From the NCBI GenBank assembly GCA_025455635.1, contig JALOMF010000003.1:1-31249 (forward strand): DNA of 31,249 nt. Reading direction: 5' to 3'. This DNA comes from Saprospiraceae bacterium (lineage in GTDB: Bacteria > Bacteroidota > Bacteroidia > Chitinophagales > Saprospiraceae). A program made the translations under genes and the position numbers. Below the pieces are notes generated by a model that searched no databases, had not been told where the DNA came from, and saw only the letters and a program-made list of their open reading frames with translations. Shown piece after piece: positions 1 to 9,268 of the stretch (position 1 is the stretch's first letter; every line of letters begins with the position of its first letter).

Positions 1-1086
1 ATCCTGTTGGTGAGCCACCAGTTGACGCAGAAAATCATGCTGGCTGCGCCAACGGGCCGGGCCGCCAAGCGCATGTCGGAGATAACGGGCTTGAAGGCGA
101 GCACCATCCACAGCCTGCTGGAATTCGATTTCAGCATCAACGGCTTCAAGCGCAACCGGGAGAACCCGCTCGACTGCGACCTGCTCATCGTGGACGAGGC
201 GAGCATGATTGACACGGTGCTGATGTTCAACCTGCTGAAGGCCGTGCCGACCACGGCGAGGCTGGTGCTGGTCGGCGACGTGGACCAGTTGCCGAGCGTG
301 GGTGCGGGCAGCGTGCTGCAAGATTTGATTTTGAGCGAAAAAATACCGACGACCCGCCTCACGGAGATTTTCCGGCAGGCCGCCGCCAGCAAAATCATCA
401 CCAACGCCCACCGCATCAACGCTGGGGAATACCCCGACCTGAGCAACGACAAAGGCGGCGACTTTTTTTTCATGGAAGAGGAAGACCCCGACAAGCTCAC
501 CGACCTCATCGTGAACCTCGTGGACAGCCGCCTGCCCAAGGCTTATGGTTTCGATTCCTTCGACGATATTCAGGTGCTGGCCCCCATGAACCGGGGCACC
601 ATCGGCAACCGCAATTTGAACGATATTTTGCAGAAAAAGCTGAACCCCAGCTACGACCCGCTGGTGAAGATGGGCCGCAGTTTCCACGAGGACGACAAGG
701 TGATGCAAATCAAGAACAACTACGACAAGGACGTTTACAATGGCGACGTGGGCCGCATCAAGAAGATTGACAAGGTAGAGCAGGAGGTGGTGGTGCTTTT
801 TGATGGCCGGGAGGTCTTCTACGACTTCACCGAGCTGGACGAACTGACGCTGGCCTACGCCGTGAGCATCCATAAATACCAGGGCAGCGAGTGCCCCTGC
901 GTGGTGATGCCGCTGGTGATGGGCCACTATATGATGCTCTACCGCAACCTGATTTATACAGGCATCACGAGGGGGAAAAAGCTGGTCATCCTCGTCGGCT
1001 CGAAGAAGGCATTGGCAATGGCGGTGAAGAACGACAAGGCAGTGAAGCGGTTTACGGGGTTGGGGGAGGTGATGCGGGGAAAATAG
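1..1086 (+). CDS. recD2: ATP-dependent RecD2-like SF1B DNA helicase, C-terminal part (5' end outside window)
   Basis: Frame open from base 1. Motifs [58 protein letters not shown]. Confidence 0.95.
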
Positions 1087-1095
1087 TTTTTCTCG

Positions 1096-1103
1096 TAACT
1101 TTG
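1096..1103 (+). promoter_or_regulatory. Bacteroidota sigma-A -7 element (TAACTTTG) upstream of the ATPase
   Basis: Exact TAnnTTTG match 22 nt before ATG 1126. Confidence 0.7.
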
Positions 1104-1125
1104 GCCTTCAAGCAATTGCAATAAC

Positions 1126-2367
1126 ATGAAAATCAGCAAGATAAAAATCAGCAAGTTCCACCAGTTCGAGGATTTTGAACTGGACTTGACTTATCCGAAG
1201 GGACATGAGAAAGCAGGGAAGCCGCTGGACAAGGTTTGCTTTATTGGGCAAAGTGGTACGGGGAAGACGACGTTGTTGGAGATGATAAGAAAGGTTTGTC
1301 TTCCAGCAGGTTCAATTAATTTTGCACCAGATTGGTTAGTATTTGAAGATAAGCAAGGAGCTGAGTTCGCATTAACGGATGAATCAAAAGATTTACGTAT
1401 TATTCTAATTAAAAATAATTTTCCTACCGACCCCAATGGCATTGCTCATAGTGGCGAGAGGTTACTTTATTTTCCAGCAGGATTGGCGAGCTTAGAGTTT
1501 AACCAAAAGGCAAATGAAAATGAAGTCATTAATATTGAAAAGGATAGGGCTGAAGAAGCAAATTTTAGAATCAACTTAACGAGACAAATTGAAGATGGGA
1601 AAAACGGTGTAGACTTAAAAACTGAAATTGATAACTGGAAAAAAGATAACCCTAACCCTGCTGAAATTGTGGCAAATGAGTGTTTAGATATACTATTAAA
1701 TAAATTTTTCCTCTCAGTTAAAACTCAAATAGACGACGTAAGAGAAACAGAAATTTTGCCTATTAGGTCTTTAAACAATAACTCGACTATATCATATGAA
1801 ACTTTAAGCACTGGAACAAAACAAGTAATTTATACTGCCTTCCCCATTTACCAATTATTAGAAGACGACAGCATCGTATTAATGGACGAGCCAGAAACCT
1901 CATTATATCCAGATATACAGCGGGAAATTATCCCTTATTATACCTCCTTTGACAAGAACAAAACCTCGCAGTTTTTCTTTGCCACGCACTCGCCCATCAT
2001 TGCCTCGGCGTTCGAGCCTTGGGAGATTGTGGAATTGAAGTTTGATGAGAAGGGGAAGGTTTATCGTCAAGAATATTATCCCAAAGAATTGGAAAACCAT
2101 GTGGATAATTACAAGATAGACGCACGGTATTTGCGTTGGGATGATATACTAACTAAAGTATTTGATTTACCATTTGACAGCAATGCTGATTTTAGGGCAA
2201 GTAAACTGACAGAATACACGATATTGAAGAACAAAATAAAAACACTCCGTGAAGAAGGAAAACTAAACAACCCGACCAAAGAAACACAACAAATTATAGA
2301 AGATTTCCAAAAAGCAGAAACATTGCTCACTGGAAGTTGGGAATATAGGCGCCATGAGAAAAATTGA
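1126..2367 (+). CDS. ABC/AAA_15-AAA_21-type ATPase, putative anti-phage defence ATPase (Septu PtuA-like)
   Basis: Walker A GQSGTGKT near the N-terminus, signature-like LSTGTKQ, Walker B/D-loop VLMDEPETSLYP, H-loop FATHSP. AT-rich; overlaps the downstream HNH gene by 14 nt. Confidence 0.85.
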   Translation: MKISKIKISKFHQFEDFELDLTYPKGHEKAGKPLDKVCFIGQSGTGKTTLLEMIRKVCLPAGSINFAPDWLVFEDKQGAEFALTDESKDLRIILIKNNFPTDPNGIAHSGERLLYFPAGLASLEFNQKANENEVINIEKDRAEEANFRINLTRQIEDGKNGVDLKTEIDNWKKDNPNPAEIVANECLDILLNKFFLSVKTQIDDVRETEILPIRSLNNNSTISYETLSTGTKQVIYTAFPIYQLLEDDSIVLMDEPETSLYPDIQREIIPYYTSFDKNKTSQFFFATHSPIIASAFEPWEIVELKFDEKGKVYRQEYYPKELENHVDNYKIDARYLRWDDILTKVFDLPFDSNADFRASKLTEYTILKNKIKTLREEGKLNNPTKETQQIIEDFQKAETLLTGSWEYRRHEKN

Positions 2368-3052
2368 AAAAAGCTGTGACCTTTCAATTGCCTACAAAAC
2401 TTGGGTAGATACCTATGAGGCAAATGGTCAACTGCACGAAAAGTACACGTCGAATGGTAAATATTACGGAGATGTTATCATGCAACTCTACCGCTGCCAG
2501 TTTGGTCTTTGTGCTTATACCGAACTTTTCTTGTGCAGCCCTAAGTATTTCCAAGATAATCATTGGGTAAATGGGCGATACTCCTCGCCAATCCCTAAAA
2601 TTGACAGGCGAGGGACTTTGGAGCATTTTGACCCTGCCCTGAAAAAAGGCAAAGGTTGGCTCTGGGAAAATTTCTTTATTGTTGACTATGAAACAAATAG
2701 CTCGATAGTGAAAGGAGCCAAAAAAATTGACGCTATTCTAAAGCCTGATAGTGATGCTTATGACCCCTTTGTATTGCTGGATTATGATGCCTAAGAACAC
2801 CAATATTTACCCAACGAGGAACTGAACAATGACGAGCAAAAACTGAGGATTCGGGCGATGTTGTCAACGCTTGGAATTGATAGGATACCGCACATCAGGC
2901 GAAATTACTTGAGAAATAAATTTTCATTGATTTATTATGGGGCAAAAACATGGGACAACGTCGAAATCACACAATTCCCAACTGCATTTGCCATGTGCAG
3001 AATGAAAGTTGAAAATGGAGAAATTGCCTTGGAAGACCTTGTCTCGGTTTAG
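2354..3052 (+). pseudogene. HNH endonuclease (PtuB/TIGR02646-like) interrupted by an in-frame TAA at 2792-2794
   Basis: ORFs 2354..2794 and 2858..3052 share a frame, separated by one TAA, and the linker reads open (EHQYLPNEELNNDEQKLRIRA). Motifs QFGLCAYTE, TLEHFDP, WENF..ETN..KG. Confidence 0.7.
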
Positions 3053-3087
3053 CCAAGCATAGACAATCAACATTTTATGCAAGAGTC

Positions 3088-3116
3088 GAATTTTGAAGAC
3101 ACTGTCTTCAAAATTC
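3088..3116 (+). terminator. Perfect 13-bp hairpin after the ATPase-HNH operon
   Basis: gaattttgaagac-act-gtcttcaaaattc; no strong U-tract follows. Confidence 0.5.
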
Positions 3117-3205
3117 AAATAGGCAATATTTAAGCCTTGTAGATTGCTTTAAAATCAGGGCGATTCCCTACCTTCACCCCACCTTCTCACCAAACCCAAC
3201 CTACT

Positions 3206-4021
3206 ATGAAAAAGAACACACACACCCGCCGCACCGAGGAGTTGAAGGCCGAAAACGAACTCAAGGCCCTCGACCTCGAACTCACCTACGGCGCTCAGAT
3301 GATGCACATCTCCGACGACGCCCCGCCAGAAATCATCGCTGCTTGGCTCGACAACGTGAAGCGCTACGAAGAGCAGTACGCCAATGCGCCGAAAATCCCG
3401 ATTTATGAGTTCATCGGCAAGCCGGAAATAAAGCCGCTGGACAGCTTGAAACCGGAAGAAATCGAGCCGGAAATCGAGCGGCTGCTGGCCTTGATGCAAG
3501 AAAAATCAGTGCTCACCGACCGCCCGGAACACCTTTCGCCACAGCGTTATTACCGCTTTTTAACCGAAGAATTCATGCAGCACCCGATGACCGACCATGC
3601 TGCGCCGGGCATGATGCACTTCTTCAATTACGAGGAATTTCACCACGATGGGCCGGAGTTCATCGAACTGCACGTCTCCGAGTTCCTGCTCGACCTGCTC
3701 AACCTTGGCCGGGACTTCGAGGGACTGTGGCTCAGCGAAAACTGCCGGGACGACCACGACGCCATCTCCAAGGCCGAGGTCATGCTGCGCTGCAACACTT
3801 TCCGGGCCATGCACCGGGACTTGAAGCCTATTGGTTTTAAAGCGGAAAAAGCGGAAATCCACAGCGGCACGATGTACCTGTTCTTTGGCATTGCATGGGA
3901 GGCGGAGCCAATGGCGAGCAAGGAAAAACAGCGGCACGAAGGCTTGGGCGTCGCTCAACTGGGCTGGGAGGACGGCGAATGGCTCGTGCAAGGGGTGAAT
4001 ATGCCGGGGTTTGCATTTTGA
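3206..4021 (+). CDS. Hypothetical cytoplasmic protein
   Basis: 271-aa ORF with host-like codon usage, acidic, no signal peptide, no motif I can name. Confidence 0.85.
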   Translation: MKKNTHTRRTEELKAENELKALDLELTYGAQMMHISDDAPPEIIAAWLDNVKRYEEQYANAPKIPIYEFIGKPEIKPLDSLKPEEIEPEIERLLALMQEKSVLTDRPEHLSPQRYYRFLTEEFMQHPMTDHAAPGMMHFFNYEEFHHDGPEFIELHVSEFLLDLLNLGRDFEGLWLSENCRDDHDAISKAEVMLRCNTFRAMHRDLKPIGFKAEKAEIHSGTMYLFFGIAWEAEPMASKEKQRHEGLGVAQLGWEDGEWLVQGVNMPGFAF

Positions 4022-4101
4022 ACATTTTCTTCATGCAGTAAAACCCCCATTGGGACGCAATGACCTTCAGTTTTTTATGCTATATGTTGCGCAATTCCCC
4101 T

Positions 4102-4109
4102 TATTTTTG
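4102..4109 (+). promoter_or_regulatory. -7 element (TATTTTTG) upstream of alkB
   Basis: TAnnTTTG match 23 nt before ATG 4133. Confidence 0.55.
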
Positions 4110-4132
4110 TCCAATCAAACCACGACCACACC

Positions 4133-5182
4133 ATGCTTCGAGACGCAAAATACCTGATAGCCTACTTGCTGCCGACTGCCACTTACGTGGCGGTGCTATG
4201 GCAGGGCATTTGGTCATTTTCGACTTTAATCCTCGCATTTGGCATACTGCCTTTGCTGGAGCAGTTCCTTGGCGGAAGCCCCGTCAACCTAACGGCGGAG
4301 GAGGAAACGGAGAAAAACGCCTCGCCCTTCTTCGACGTACTGCTTTACCTCAACCTACCCATACTTTACGGCCTGCTTTGGTTGTATCTGGACGTGGTGA
4401 CGGATGGTGGCCTCGCCATTTGGGAGACTGCGGGCCTGGCTTTGAGCATGGGCATCACGGTGGGCAGCATCGGCATCAATGTGGCCCACGAACTTGGCCA
4501 CCGCCAAAGCCTCCATGAAACGCTGATGGCAAAGGTCATGCTCACGGCGGCGCTCTACACCCATTTCAACATCGAGCACAACCGGGGGCACCACCGATGG
4601 GTCGCCACTGACGAAGACCCCTCCAGCGCAAGGCCCGGCGAGTCGCTGTACCACTTCTGGTTCCGCTCCGTGACGGGCACTTACCTCAAGGCTTGGCACC
4701 TCGAAAACGACCGCCTACGGCAAATTGGCAAACCCGTTTTATCCATTCACAACGAAATGATATGGTTCCAAATCGCTCATTTGGCCTACCTCGCCTTGGT
4801 CTGGTGGGCCTTCGGGTGGGCAGGCGTGGGCTTTGCGGTGCTGGCAGCCGTGCTGGGGTTCCTCCTGCTCGAAACGGTCAACTACATCGAGCATTACGGC
4901 CTTCGGCGCAAGCGCATGGCCAATGGTTTTTACGAGACCGTGTCGCCTAGGCACTCCTGGAACTCTGACCACGAACTGGGCCGCATTTTCCTCTACGAAC
5001 TCACCCGGCACAGCGACCACCACTACAAAGCGACCCGCAAATACCAGGTGCTGCGACACTTCGACGAAAGCCCGCAGCTGCCGCATGGCTACCCTGCCAC
5101 GATGCTGCTAGCACTGGTGCCTCCGCTTTGGTTCAGCGTAATGGACAAACGCACTGAAGTCGGCACTGCAACAGCAGCATGA
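4133..5182 (+). CDS. alkB: Alkane 1-monooxygenase (membrane di-iron hydroxylase)
   Basis: His boxes HELGH, EHNRGHH, NYIEHYGL and LTRHSDHH; several transmembrane segments. Confidence 0.92.
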   Translation: MLRDAKYLIAYLLPTATYVAVLWQGIWSFSTLILAFGILPLLEQFLGGSPVNLTAEEETEKNASPFFDVLLYLNLPILYGLLWLYLDVVTDGGLAIWETAGLALSMGITVGSIGINVAHELGHRQSLHETLMAKVMLTAALYTHFNIEHNRGHHRWVATDEDPSSARPGESLYHFWFRSVTGTYLKAWHLENDRLRQIGKPVLSIHNEMIWFQIAHLAYLALVWWAFGWAGVGFAVLAAVLGFLLLETVNYIEHYGLRRKRMANGFYETVSPRHSWNSDHELGRIFLYELTRHSDHHYKATRKYQVLRHFDESPQLPHGYPATMLLALVPPLWFSVMDKRTEVGTATAA

Positions 5183-5201
5183 ATTTTTGCCGCAGGCACA
5201 C

Positions 5202-5209
5202 TATCTTTG
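5202..5209 (+). promoter_or_regulatory. -7 element (TATCTTTG) upstream of gldH
   Basis: Exact TAnnTTTG match between the alkB stop and the gldH ATG at 5235. Confidence 0.7.
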
Positions 5210-5234
5210 CCTGATACCTAGTCTAAAACTTACC

Positions 5235-5711
5235 ATGCCCATTGTTTCCACCCGTATCGTTATTGCCTTTGCATTACTGTCCTCTATGCTCGTTGCCTGC
5301 AACAGCGACACGATTTTCGATGAAAGCAAGCGCATACCCAATGCCGCATGGGACTACAACCAGCCCCTCCCCTTTGAATTTGAAGTAAGGGACACGACCA
5401 AAACTTACCAAGTCGTGCTGGAAATGACACATGCTGGCGACTTTGGCTACCAGAATTGCTACGTCCAAATCACCACCAAATTTCCCAACGGGGAAGAAAA
5501 AAAACAGCCCGTCAGCCTCGAACTGGCGGCCCAGTCGGGCATCTGGAACGGCGAATGCAGCGGCAATACCTGCACCCTCGAAATACCCCTGCAAACCAAA
5601 GCCAAGTTCAAGCAGCCCGGCAAGCACAGCATCACCGTCGAGCAGTTCATGCGGGTGAACCCACTTCCCGGCATCGAAGCCATTGGCCTGAAAATCAAAC
5701 AATTGGAATGA
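5235..5711 (+). CDS. gldH: Gliding motility lipoprotein GldH
   Basis: Lipobox LVAC; W..........FEF.V.DT, Y.YQNCYV, G.W.G.C.G, EQFMR.NPL.GI..IGL.I pattern. Start moved from 5187 to ATG 5235, downstream of the promoter. Confidence 0.9.
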   Translation: MPIVSTRIVIAFALLSSMLVACNSDTIFDESKRIPNAAWDYNQPLPFEFEVRDTTKTYQVVLEMTHAGDFGYQNCYVQITTKFPNGEEKKQPVSLELAAQSGIWNGECSGNTCTLEIPLQTKAKFKQPGKHSITVEQFMRVNPLPGIEAIGLKIKQLE

Positions 5712-5713
5712 GC

Positions 5714-5798
5714 GGTTTAGGAAGTTGAGCAGGTTTAGGAGGTTTATGAAGCACCCAACTAAACCTTCTAAACCCTTCTAAACCTCCCTAAACCTCCG
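5714..5798. repeat. Tandem 9/10-mer palindrome (ggtttagga)n ... (ctaaacct)n
   Basis: Left arm ggtttagga agttgagca ggtttagga ggtttatga; right arm ctaaacctt ctaaaccctt ctaaacctc cctaaacctc. Confidence 0.8.
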
Positions 5799-5801
5799 AA
5801 A

Positions 5802-6632
5802 ATGATTAACTTTTTCTCCATCAACGGCGAACTGGTGCCCAAGGAGCAAGCCGCCCTCGGCGTCACCGACCTGGCCATCCAGCGGGGCTATGGCCTCTTC
5901 GATTATTTTGTGGTGAAAAAGGGCCAGCCCATCTTCTTCGAGGACTACCTCGACCGCATTGAGCAATCGGCCAAATGGCTGCGGCTGGAGCTTCCGGTCA
6001 CGAGGGAGGAGCTTCGGGTGCAGGTCATGCAGCTCATCCGGGCCAATGGCGAGCAGGAGGCGGGCATCAAAATCATCCTAACGGGCGGCTATTCCGACGA
6101 TGGATACTCCCCCGAAAAATGCAACCTCGTCATCCTCGAAATGCCGCCGCCGAGCTACCCGGCCAGCAAGTTTGAGCAGGGAGTGAAGCTCATGCTGTAC
6201 GAGTACCACCGCACCTTTCCCAGCGCCAAGACCATCAACTACCTCGTGGGGATTTATTTGCTGCCGCAACAACGGGCCGCCAATGCCGAAGACGTGCTTT
6301 TCCATTCCGAAGGCCATCTCTACGAGACCACCCGTGCCAATTTTTTCATCGTCACCAAGGACAATACCATCGTCACGGCCAGCGAGGGCATCCTGCACGG
6401 CATCACCCGGAAGCACCTGCTACGCTTGGCCCGCCACCACTACGCCGTGGAGGAGCGCCGACCCACCCTCGAAGAGCTGCACACGGCCAAGGAAGCGTTC
6501 ATCAGCAGCAGCACCCGGCTGCTCATGCCCGTGGTGCAGGTGGACGATGTGATGATTGGGGATGGAAAGCCCGGCCCCCGGCATTTGCTGGAGTTGATGA
6601 AAGAGGAAGTGGAGCGTTATCTCGAAAGCTAA
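5802..6632 (+). CDS. PLP-dependent aminotransferase class IV (branched-chain/D-amino acid transaminase-like)
   Basis: RGYGLFD, AKTINYL (PLP lysine), ETTRANFF, ILHGITR, EAFISSS. Confidence 0.9.
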   Translation: MINFFSINGELVPKEQAALGVTDLAIQRGYGLFDYFVVKKGQPIFFEDYLDRIEQSAKWLRLELPVTREELRVQVMQLIRANGEQEAGIKIILTGGYSDDGYSPEKCNLVILEMPPPSYPASKFEQGVKLMLYEYHRTFPSAKTINYLVGIYLLPQQRAANAEDVLFHSEGHLYETTRANFFIVTKDNTIVTASEGILHGITRKHLLRLARHHYAVEERRPTLEELHTAKEAFISSSTRLLMPVVQVDDVMIGDGKPGPRHLLELMKEEVERYLES

Positions 6633-6637
6633 TGCAT

Positions 6638-6696
6638 GTACCGGAACCCCGGTTCCCTGTGTCAATCTATCCACCGGAACGGGGGTTTCGGTGTAC
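6638..6696. terminator. Imperfect GC-rich inverted repeat between convergent genes
   Basis: gtaccggaaccccggttccctgtg ... caccggaacgggggtttcggtgtac fills the gap between the two stop codons. Confidence 0.5.
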
Positions 6697-6698
6697 GG

Positions 6699-8303
6699 TT
6701 ACAGTACCGTCAAATCAATAAACTCCAACTGCTCCGGGAAGTCCGTCGTGAAGTGCAGGCCCCGGCTCTCCCGCCGCATGGCTGCCGAGCGGGTGATGAG
6801 GTAGGCGATGGTGATGAGGTTGCGAAGCTCACAGAGCTGCGGCGAAATGGTCGTCTTGTGGTAAAGTTCCTCCGTTTCTTTGTACAACAAATAAAGGCGG
6901 TCGCTGGCACGCTGGAGGCGCTCGTTGGAGCGCACGATGCCCACGTAGTAGCTCATCACATCCTTCAATTCCTTCATGCTTTGGGTAATGAGAATCAACT
7001 CCTTGGGGTCGGTAGTACCCTGTGCATTCCAGTCTGGGATGGCAGTAGTTGGCAGTTTTGTACCGTCTATTTTCTCCCGAACATCCAAGTAGATACGGTG
7101 GGCGAAAACCATTGCTTCCAGCAGGGAATTGGAGGCGAGACGATTGGCGCCGTGGAGGCCCGTGCAGGTACATTCGCCAGCGGCGTAAAGGCGGTTGATG
7201 CTCGTGCGGCCTATCTCGTCGGTCATGATGCCGCCGCACATGTAGTGGCAGGCGGGCGTCACGGGTATCATGGCCGTCATCGGGTCAATGCCGATGCTCA
7301 GGCATTTTTCATAAATAGTGGGAAAATGCGCCACAAAAGCCTCCTTGTCGAGGTGGCGGCAGTCGAGGTACATGTGCTCGGCGCCCTGGATTTTCATCTC
7401 CCGGTCAATGGCCCTCGCCACGATGTCACGGGGAGCAAGGCTGCCCCGCTCGTCGTATTTTTTCATGAACTCCTCGCCCTGCGGGGTCTTCAGCACGCCG
7501 CCAAAACCACGCACCGCCTCCGATACGAGGAAGGAGGGGTTGTCGCCAGCCGGGTTGTAGAGCGCCGTCGGATGGAACTGCACGAACTCCATGTTCTGGA
7601 TGCGCCCCTTTGCCCGATAGACCATCGCCATGCCGTCGCCGGTGGCAATGACGGGGTTGGTGGTATTGCGATAGACCTGCCCTGCCCCGCCCGTGGCCAG
7701 CACGGTCATGCGGGCGAGCAGCGTCTCGATTTCGCCCGTCTGTTTGTTCAGGGCATAGGCGCCGTAGCACTCGATGCCGGGCGTCACCCTCGTGACGGTA
7801 TGCCCCAAGTGGTGCTGCGTGATGATGTCAATGGCAAAATAGTGCTCCAGCACCGTGATGTTCGGCGTGAGGTCGGCCTGTGCGCTGAGGGTGCGCTGCA
7901 TCTCCCAGCCCGTGAGGTCTTTGTAGTGCAGGATGCGGTTTTCGGAGTGGCCGCCCTCCTTGGCGAGGTCGTAGGCTTCGCCCTTGTTTTTGTCGAAACG
8001 GGCGCCCCAGTCAATGATTTCCTGCACCCGGTCGGGGCCTTCCTTGACCACGATTTCCACGATGTTTTTGTCGCAAAGCCCGTCACCAGCGATGAGCGTG
8101 TCCTCGATATGCTTCTGGTAGCTGTCCGTTTTGAAATCCCAAACGGCGGCCACACCGCCCTGTGCGTAGCGGGTGTTGCTCTCGGTCTCGTTGGTCTTGG
8201 TGAGCACGGTGATGTTCAGGTCGGGGCGCTCTTGCGCAATTTTGAGGGCAAAGGTCAGCCCGGCGATGCCAGAACCAAGCACGAGTATGTCGCTTTGAAT
8301 CAT
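6699..8303 (-). CDS. nadB: L-aspartate oxidase
   Basis: GSGIAGL, SNTRYAQGGVAA, EGGHSENRILH, EFVQFHPT, LVSEAVRG, HYMCGG, LHGANRLASNSLLE, RESRGLHF. Start taken at MIQSD (8303). Confidence 0.96.
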   Translation of the reverse strand: MIQSDILVLGSGIAGLTFALKIAQERPDLNITVLTKTNETESNTRYAQGGVAAVWDFKTDSYQKHIEDTLIAGDGLCDKNIVEIVVKEGPDRVQEIIDWGARFDKNKGEAYDLAKEGGHSENRILHYKDLTGWEMQRTLSAQADLTPNITVLEHYFAIDIITQHHLGHTVTRVTPGIECYGAYALNKQTGEIETLLARMTVLATGGAGQVYRNTTNPVIATGDGMAMVYRAKGRIQNMEFVQFHPTALYNPAGDNPSFLVSEAVRGFGGVLKTPQGEEFMKKYDERGSLAPRDIVARAIDREMKIQGAEHMYLDCRHLDKEAFVAHFPTIYEKCLSIGIDPMTAMIPVTPACHYMCGGIMTDEIGRTSINRLYAAGECTCTGLHGANRLASNSLLEAMVFAHRIYLDVREKIDGTKLPTTAIPDWNAQGTTDPKELILITQSMKELKDVMSYYVGIVRSNERLQRASDRLYLLYKETEELYHKTTISPQLCELRNLITIAYLITRSAAMRRESRGLHFTTDFPEQLEFIDLTVL

Positions 8304-8312
8304 GATAGAAAA

Positions 8313-8344
8313 CGGTGGACGGCTTACGGCGGACGGCATTCGGC
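8313..8344. repeat. Heptamer array (cggtgga/cggctta family) in the nadB 5' leader
   Basis: cggtgga cggctta cggcgga cggcatt cggc; same units as at 16053-16128. Confidence 0.75.
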
Positions 8345-8379
8345 TCGTCGCTGCACAAGGCCGCTGTTTTTTAAGGAGG

Positions 8380-8387
8380 CAAAGTTA
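8380..8387 (-). promoter_or_regulatory. -7 element (TAACTTTG) for nadB
   Basis: caaagtta on the + strand is TAACTTTG on the - strand. Confidence 0.7.
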
Positions 8388-8482
8388 CGAAGGCTTGCAC
8401 CTAAGTTTACGATGGCTTTTGTATTTCAAAAAGCGTCACTACATTTAGCCGGATATTTTTCACCAACCAAAAATTCGAAAGC

Positions 8483-9268
8483 ATGCAAGACAACAAAGCA
8501 AAGATTGACCAAATCATCAGCGAAGCCAACGACTTCCGGTTTGGCGACTACCTCAGCAGGGGCTTCGAGATTTTCAAAAAAGACATTGGCGGGTTCGTTG
8601 TGTTCACGCTCGTTTTCTTTGTGCTATCCGTCGTCATTGGGCTGATACCCATCGTGGGCAGCATTGCCAACTCGCTCGTCATCACGCCTGCCCTGACCGT
8701 GGGCTTCTACTTGGTGGCCCGCAAACTGGACTTGGGCGAACAGAACGAGTTCGGCAATTATTTCAAGGGCTTCGATTTCGTGGGCCAGCTTGCCCTCGCA
8801 GCCTTGGTCACCAGTGTTATCTCGCTCTTGGCGCTCATCCCGTTTTACTTGGCTTTCTGGAACCCAGAGTACCTTGAGTGGTACCAAGAAGTGGTTCAAA
8901 ACCCAGGCTCGCCACCGCCCAGCTTCCCTGAATTACCGCCGGTTTGGTCTTTTTTACTGTTGCTTCCCGTATTTTATATTGGCATTGTCTATGGCTGGAC
9001 CTACCTGTTCATTGCCTTCCACAAATTGGATTTTTGGCCAGCGATGGAGGCCAGCCGTAGGCTGCTGACCAAGCATTTTTTCATCTATTTCATCTTCATG
9101 TTGGTGTTGGGCATCATTATGTTTGCCAGCATACTGGTATTTTGCATCGGCATCTTGGCGGGTTTCCCCATCATCATGTGCATGAACTACGCTGCCTTCG
9201 CCGACCTGACCAAGCTCAACGCCACCCCCGATGCCGGAGAGGAGATTGAGCAGCACTTGATTGTTTGA
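8483..9268 (+). CDS. Integral membrane protein (DUF975/BPSS1780-like)
   Basis: About six hydrophobic segments; GF..F K..., F.DYF.GF and FWPAMEASRRL patterns. Confidence 0.8.
   Translation: MQDNKAKIDQIISEANDFRFGDYLSRGFEIFKKDIGGFVVFTLVFFVLSVVIGLIPIVGSIANSLVITPALTVGFYLVARKLDLGEQNEFGNYFKGFDFVGQLALAALVTSVISLLALIPFYLAFWNPEYLEWYQEVVQNPGSPPPSFPELPPVWSFLLLLPVFYIGIVYGWTYLFIAFHKLDFWPAMEASRRLLTKHFFIYFIFMLVLGIIMFASILVFCIGILAGFPIIMCMNYAAFADLTKLNATPDAGEEIEQHLIV

Follow-up and report, generated by a model that had tools for sequence, protein, structure and literature searches.

What kind of system is encoded by the two genes that directly follow recD2 in a Saprospiraceae bacterium, and is this copy of it still able to work? 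The locus lies on contig JALOMF010000003.1, positions 1-31,249 of which make up the window (the whole stretch of DNA analyzed here, 31,249 nt), in a genome that is 80% complete (G000). A gene for an ABC-type ATPase (1126-2367, + strand) and a co-oriented gene for an HNH nuclease (2354-3052, + strand) overlap by 14 nt and stand just 39 nt (1087-1125) behind the recD2 stop codon in an AT-rich block, and in all these respects the initial annotation of the stretch was correct. The same annotation regarded the pair as an insertion that carries either a stand-alone Septu-like or a new ATPase-nuclease anti-phage system. We conclude, with a probability of about 0.8, that the two genes are ptuA and ptuB of a stand-alone (type I) Septu residing for a long time in a slot behind recD2, and that the present copy is most likely inactive.

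Identification of the pair as Septu

The ATPase, with a length of 413 aa in this assembly, was identified as PtuA by profiles as well as by fold. It matched the PADLOC PtuA model PDLC00274 with an E-value of 7.1e-68 (228 bits) and the Pfam families AAA_15 (8.7e-24) and AAA_21 (9.6e-16), and it carries the full motif set of an ABC-type ATPase, i.e., a Walker A motif (GQSGTGKT), a signature (LSTGTKQ), a Walker B motif ending in D254-E255, and H288 in the H-loop, with the caveat that a conserved segment of about 33 residues is missing in this assembly. The AlphaFold model (pLDDT 84), in which C-terminal helices occupy residues 354-412, was closest in the PDB to PtuA of the E. coli Septu (8eea_D, 8ee4, and 8sux), and PtuA chains of type I-A retrons ranked after these.

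The second gene, of 232 codons with an interruption at codon 147, encodes an HNH (beta-beta-alpha-Me) nuclease whose C-terminal domain is helical. The PADLOC models PtuB1 (PDLC00347, 2.5e-7) and HNH_I-A (3.8e-6) matched it, and no Pfam family did. Among the profile checks proposed in the initial annotation, AAA_15, AAA_21, and the PADLOC PtuA model thus gave matches, and TIGR02646 gave none with PtuB. Since a search of PDB sequences with the PtuB profile returned marginal PtuB matches (E 0.015-0.2) with a poorly aligned middle part, a fold search was needed, and the structure was modeled on an intact 232-aa homolog that is 96% identical to the frame in the window (pLDDT 90). The top 11 PDB matches of this model were all PtuB, belonging to the retrons Ec83, Ec78, and Eco7 and to the E. 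coli Septu (8eea_G), and the HNH domains of Cas9 ranked after them. The model places the beta-beta-alpha element at residues 87-120 and the C-terminal helices at residues 160-231. H91, N106, and N115 are invariant in 116 full-length representatives of the clade to which this PtuB belongs, and K120 nearly so; these four residues form the beta-beta-alpha-Me catalytic set, which identifies PtuB as an HNH nuclease.

The two genes also travel as a unit, as the same pair is found in six genomes of the genus and, between unrelated housekeeping genes and with no reverse transcriptase alongside, in contigs L017-L021. On the PDLC00274 score and the fold matches, the Septu-like half of the initial proposal stands and the other half does not, i.e., the pair is a known system and not a new kind of ATPase-nuclease.

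ABC ATPases of this type are related to Rad50 and OLD, and the models of AriA and AbiLi match the protein too. An identity as AbiL, PARIS, Gabija, or OLD was nevertheless rejected, as the AriA, AbiLi, and GajA models scored far below the PtuA model (AbiLi 65 bits vs 228 bits) and the partner folds as a PtuB-type HNH nuclease and not as TOPRIM or RloB.

A stand-alone system and not a retron effector

PtuA and PtuB also occur as the effector half of type I-A retrons (type II Septu), and the reverse transcriptase and the non-coding RNA of such a retron might be encoded elsewhere in this genome. Weak matches of the pair to PADLOC HNH_I-A and to the NCBIfam retron PtuA/PtuB models, as well as the presence of Ec83 and Ec78 chains among the best structural matches of PtuB, would agree with that. 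The initial annotation had argued that there is no room upstream for either retron component, and this was borne out by the spacing of just 39 nt between recD2 and ptuA, where a type I-A retron would have a reverse transcriptase and an msr-msd beside ptuAB. Besides, no match to the reverse transcriptase family RVT_1 was found in the 80%-complete genome, no retron RNA family of Rfam matched positions 1-6000, and no reverse transcriptase lies beside the homologous pairs that occur in other contexts. PtuA is also short (413-460 aa), without the long N- and C-terminal extensions of the 550-aa Ec78 PtuA. We therefore interpret the pair as a stand-alone Septu whose PtuB comes from a clade without the zinc finger, and consider a retron origin extremely improbable. 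The only Rfam match at E-values up to 1 was a chance snoRNA match inside ptuA.

The closest parallels can be drawn with the stand-alone Septu of E. coli (8EE4, 8EEA, 8SUX; Ec-B88, PMC13096335), whose chains are the best structural matches of PtuA and include a match of PtuB (8eea_G). It shares with the pair described here the overlapping, co-oriented order of ABC ATPase gene and HNH gene, a three-helix C-terminal domain on PtuB, presumed to serve in docking, the lack of a reverse transcriptase, and a location as AT-rich cargo in a variable chromosomal slot. On the other hand, sequence identity is just 12-16%, three of the four zinc ligands are missing from the PtuB of our clade, which also carries about 30 inserted residues, and this copy is marked by a nonsense codon and possibly by a deletion within ptuA. 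The retrons Ec78/Eco7 and Ec83/Eco4 have the same PtuA and PtuB folds (9e8z_B, 9u9y_H, and 9vhl_F were the top matches of PtuB) and presumably the same domain logic, in which the PtuB C-terminal domain is bound by C-terminal helices of PtuA. Both helical elements of the presumed docking are present in our models (PtuB helices 160-231 and PtuA helices 354-412), the PtuB part lying behind the nonsense codon in this copy. Unlike type I-A retrons, the locus has no reverse transcriptase, no msr-msd, and no msDNA-binding extensions of PtuA.

By analogy with the solved Septu and retron I-A complexes, PtuA would oligomerize and hold PtuB through a helical bundle, to which PtuA would contribute its C-terminal helices and PtuB its C-terminal domain. 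The PtuB nuclease would be kept quiet by bound nucleotide, and phage infection would release it to cut DNA or tRNA, stopping phage growth. In the literature, the E. coli Septu is described as a 6:2 complex inhibited by ATP, and ATP binding is reported as inhibitory to the PtuAB nuclease across Septu systems (PMC12640716). Stand-alone Septu is reported to nick plasmid DNA, Retron-Eco4 PtuAB to cut ssDNA, and both Septu Ec-B88 and Retron-Eco7 to cleave tRNA-Tyr, and defense is reported to be lost in Walker and HNH mutants (PMC12640716; PMC13096335; PMC12819146). Phage protection that depends on the ATPase and the HNH nuclease has been shown for E. coli systems only (PMC12819146; PMC13096335). 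We assume that this mechanism carries over to the locus behind recD2, and its sequence holds nothing that contradicts it.

A PtuB clade without the zinc finger

The PtuB encoded here belongs to a widespread clade, found mostly in Bacteroidota, which keeps the catalytic His-Asn-Asn set and the presumed docking domain; the profile search recovered 316 cluster representatives of it. In PtuB of Eco7, a zinc finger is formed by C43, C46, C78, and C90, and mutating these four cysteines abolished defense (PMC12673091). Characterized PtuB has all four cysteine ligands, whereas our clade retains only the first (C53). Of the 116 representatives, 115 have Thr or Ser at position 56, the position that matches Eco7 C78 is variable, and the loop bearing C90 is absent. 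Besides, about 30 residues have been gained between the CAYTE and EHF motifs. The clade may represent a structurally distinct PtuB that is still an active nuclease.

State of this copy

Codon 147 of ptuB (2792-2794, + strand) is an in-frame TAA where relatives have CAA (Gln), and the frame is otherwise open; the stop amounts to a single CAA-to-TAA change. Position 2792 is a C in contig L049, which is about 97% identical, and in sequencing runs X2 and X3, and a T in the window, in run X1, which is probably the source sample, and in the JGI contig L050. Compared with L049, six of the eight codon differences after the TAA are synonymous and the other two conservative, which indicates that the change is recent. 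The TAA precedes all helices of the C-terminal domain in the PtuB model. In Eco7, the three helices of this domain bind the C-terminal domains of PtuA, and its deletion reduced defense (PMC12673091; PMC12819146). As the stop falls before the presumed docking domain, loss of function is likely, and by analogy with Eco7 the present ptuAB copy is most likely inactive. We also considered recoding or a split gene as readings of the TAA and rejected both, as the codon is an ordinary CAA in relatives and none of the other genes in the window depends on readthrough of TAA.

The ATPase gene may not be intact in this assembly either. At 1538-1544 (+ strand), ptuA has an in-frame junction where about 33 codons are absent compared with all homologs; the segment, with a nearly invariant Trp, is present in 55 of 55 aligned homologs. 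L050 represents the same strain, with one mismatch over 1544-3057. Upstream of 1544, both this contig and a Logan contig of run X1 continue as ...NLEKLWQKYFNKIKDY and contain the segment that the window lacks; none of the X1 contigs spans 1539-1543. Either part of the population has this deletion, or the assembly was wrongly joined here.

These observations raise the alternative of a complete, working module in the actual bacterium. Both the TAA and the gap in ptuA would then be errors, or variants of a minority, in a metagenome assembly of low coverage. The word depth in the run that best covers the sequence is only 3.8-6.6, and the contig with the TAA has a depth of 3.8 vs 6.5 alongside, which fits a mixed population. 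The ptuA junction, bridged by none of the Logan contigs and contradicted by L050 and X1, and the CAA in X2, X3, and L049 point in the same direction. The TAA is, however, present in three assemblies (the window, the X1 Logan contig, and L050), possibly from the same or sibling samples, and decay is common at this site, with three of six Septu copies visibly broken. We thus regard an intact module as unlikely, while giving it some weight, and retain the reading of an inactivated Septu.

Two further PtuA-like genes (C147:8088-9194 and C180:13-171, both on the - strand) lie elsewhere in this genome and are 65-68% identical to residues 1-55 of the slot PtuA. No CAYTE-type PtuB was found elsewhere in the genome.

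The slot behind recD2 in the genus

The DNA behind recD2 was retrieved from 27 further genomes of the genus, giving 28 with the present one. RecD2 itself is 71-99% identical across the 27 over the last 130-170 residues retrieved, and 74-100% over the whole 361-residue query. The suggestion in the initial annotation that the recD2 3' end is a variable defense slot holds in the genus, where the pair is not fixed but occurs in six of the 28 genomes (G000, G002, G047, G018, G019, and G049). Genes for AbiLi and AbiLii follow recD2 on the opposite strand in five (G013, G043, G005, G023, and G022), and PDC-S02 (DUF1016/YhcG) stands between recD2 and ptuA in one (G002), as it also does in the X2 and X3 strains. 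In other genomes, the cargo is unrelated to these systems and consists of a gene for an IS transposase, one for a ParE toxin, or ordinary genes. The ParE-family toxin gene (G041, L032:6572-6874, - strand) shows that toxin-antitoxin cargo also uses the site. Like Septu, AbiL (AbiLi with the RloB-like AbiLii) and PDC-S02 (with its PD-(D/E)xK nuclease) occupy the recD2 3' slot in sister genomes, and AbiLi is also an ABC-type ATPase of the AAA_21 family; unlike Septu, they have other partner nucleases and lie on the opposite strand.

Whole systems at the slot decay or give way to AbiL. In addition to the copy with the TAA, those of G019 and G049 are visibly broken. In G019 (L044:4135-5019, - strand), an insertion of 1.27 kb, which encodes a 295-aa open reading frame (ORF) without a Pfam family, interrupts ptuB after about codon 149, and the C-terminal part of PtuB resumes in another frame. 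In G049 (L045, oriented 489-1988), ptuA has an internal deletion of the residues matching about 200-392, and ptuB a frameshift near codon 130. G009 has the empty arrangement of the subclade that holds these two genomes. In G022 (L046, oriented 480-830), an ORF of about 60 aa that looks antitoxin-like stands behind the recD2 stop. Next come codons 1-29 of ptuA and, beyond them, AbiLii and AbiLi on the opposite strand; here, a Septu copy was replaced by AbiL and a stub was left.

The interval between recD2 and ptuA in G018 (L033:480-930) holds about 12 tandem repeats of 21 nt with a unit like GTGCGAACAAAATTGTTGSTC and, between these and the Septu promoter box, a repeat of the terminal ~100 nt of recD2. 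This arrangement suggests that the recD2 3' end took part in an insertion or a recombination. Such partial duplicates of the recD2 3' end were found only in G018 and perhaps G002, and no convincing direct repeats or att-like duplications were detected at the borders of the slot in the window.

The position next to a helicase gene, with which the pair could be co-transcribed, together with the kinship of its ATPase to Rad50, might also suggest a non-defense role, i.e., a repair or housekeeping ATPase-nuclease acting with RecD2, or else one of the other ABC-ATPase systems discussed above. The distribution of the pair argues against this. It follows recD2 in only six of 28 genomes of the genus, the PtuB clade was detected in four of 150 other genera of the family, the pair recurs in unrelated contexts, and at this slot it alternates with AbiL and PDC-S02. 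Considering also the PtuA model score and the PtuB fold, we find such a role very improbable, and keep to the assignment as a Septu defense system.

Mosaic alleles of ptuA

Comparison of the ptuA alleles revealed a hypervariable middle part (aa 55-237; 1288-1836, + strand) between conserved blocks that encode the ATPase motifs. Identity over PtuA residues 1-55 and about 225-310 is 97-100% in the three alleles of close relatives and 83-90% in G019, whereas residues 56-140 are 5-27% identical among the alleles of the genus, and the PtuA tail and PtuB about 30-60%. The G+C content at third codon positions (GC3) is 26% over 1288-1836 vs 64% and 46% in the flanking blocks. Over 1837-3297, a metagenome contig of run X2 agrees with the window at 98.7% identity, and over 1288-1836 the two are unlike each other.

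The DNA of the conserved ptuA blocks diverges about as recD2 does (90% identity in close relatives, 72-76% in distant ones), which indicates a long-resident locus and not a fresh insertion. The pair is thus better described as a resident of the slot, with intervening segments replaced, than as inserted behind recD2, as the initial annotation had it. The aligned alleles are most simply explained by a locus that descends vertically and has the middle of its ptuA replaced by recombination, the motif-coding DNA serving as homology arms, and this explanation agrees with a separate remark on mosaic codon usage made in that annotation. The ptuA middle, the PtuA C-terminal helices, and ptuB would then be exchanged by recombination, and the ATPase-motif blocks inherited with the host. 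We tentatively suggest, as a possibility that we hold to be less than even, that PtuA residues 55-237 are a swappable specificity cassette, with the Walker A and the signature/Walker B DNA as arms and with the recD2 3' end as a genus-wide hotspot.

Boundaries and further features of the block

The left border of the slot is formed by the 3' part of recD2 (1-1086, + strand; stop codon TAG at 1084-1086), which encodes an SF1B helicase (TIGR01448, 2.8e-157, 525 bits; Pfam AAA_19, AAA_30, SH3_13, and UvrD_C_2). DNA homology to relatives with other cargo (G013, G043, G002, and G022) ends at 1059-1079 and restarts at 3164-3169, which delimits a foreign block at about 1087-3163 (~2.08 kb). The low G+C content noted in the initial annotation is evident throughout: 38% in the block vs 56-57% in the flanks, and 31-42% in 300-nt windows within it vs 54-62% on either side. 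GC3 is 26-64% within the block vs 75-85% in recD2 and the downstream gene.

The box TAACTTTG (1096-1103, + strand), read directly 22 nt upstream of the ptuA ATG, resembles a Bacteroidota -7 box, and it would be a putative promoter of ptuAB itself, as the initial annotation had proposed. The box stands at the position claimed, and GTAACTTTG is kept before ptuA in G002, G047, G018, G019, and G049, so that the box is present in all six slot Septu alleles; its use as a promoter is presumed. A scan with a sigma-70 promoter model, which is not applicable to a locus of the Bacteroidota type, gave nothing meaningful.

A perfect hairpin of 13-14 bp follows ptuB at 3088-3116 (+ strand), with a local fold of -24.2 kcal/mol (z = -4.7 vs shuffles). 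The initial annotation had taken this hairpin as the close of a block at 1096-3116; the hairpin is there, and the block extends beyond it to about 3163. The intrinsic-terminator scan made no call on the hairpin because it lacks a U-tract; the hairpin could represent a terminator or else belong to the palindromic elements of the genome. At 3057/3058, L049 (~920-965) and run X2 have 44 extra nt with a second hairpin of similar design, and the X1 Logan contigs break at the same point. Both types of hairpin may be members of the palindromic intergenic elements of the window.

On the right, the slot is bordered by the homology restart and a gene for a 271-aa protein of no known family (3164-4021; gene at 3206-4021, + strand), which had no Pfam or PADLOC matches and follows the slot in five genomes of the genus. 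A 669-aa ORF at 6636-8645 likewise has no Pfam match. No tRNA gene was found in the window.

Implications

Several points weigh against our interpretation. The family scores of PtuB are weak (30 bits with PADLOC, and 15.9 bits with NF041761, for which the cut-off is 150), the zinc finger required in Eco7 PtuB is missing from this clade, and that the clade is active is an assumption. The TAA was read at low depth (~3.8-6.6), and the three assemblies that have it are not independent because they probably come from one sample. The ptuA gap is unsupported by sibling assemblies, and the promoter and the terminator are putative.

Overall, the locus adds little to the knowledge of Septu as a kind. 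What it does bring to light is a large unannotated clade of PtuB that does without the zinc finger that is essential in the one PtuB tested, and near-identical strains with a replaced middle segment of PtuA, which hint at where the specificity of Septu may lie. The recD2 3' end is also a landmark for defense cargo in this Saprospiraceae-like genus, at which gain, diversification, decay, and replacement can be seen. If the cassette hypothesis is true, strains would swap the sensor of their Septu, together with the PtuA tail and PtuB, while the locus stays in place, and Septu, AbiL, and PDC-S02 would alternate at the recD2 3' end.

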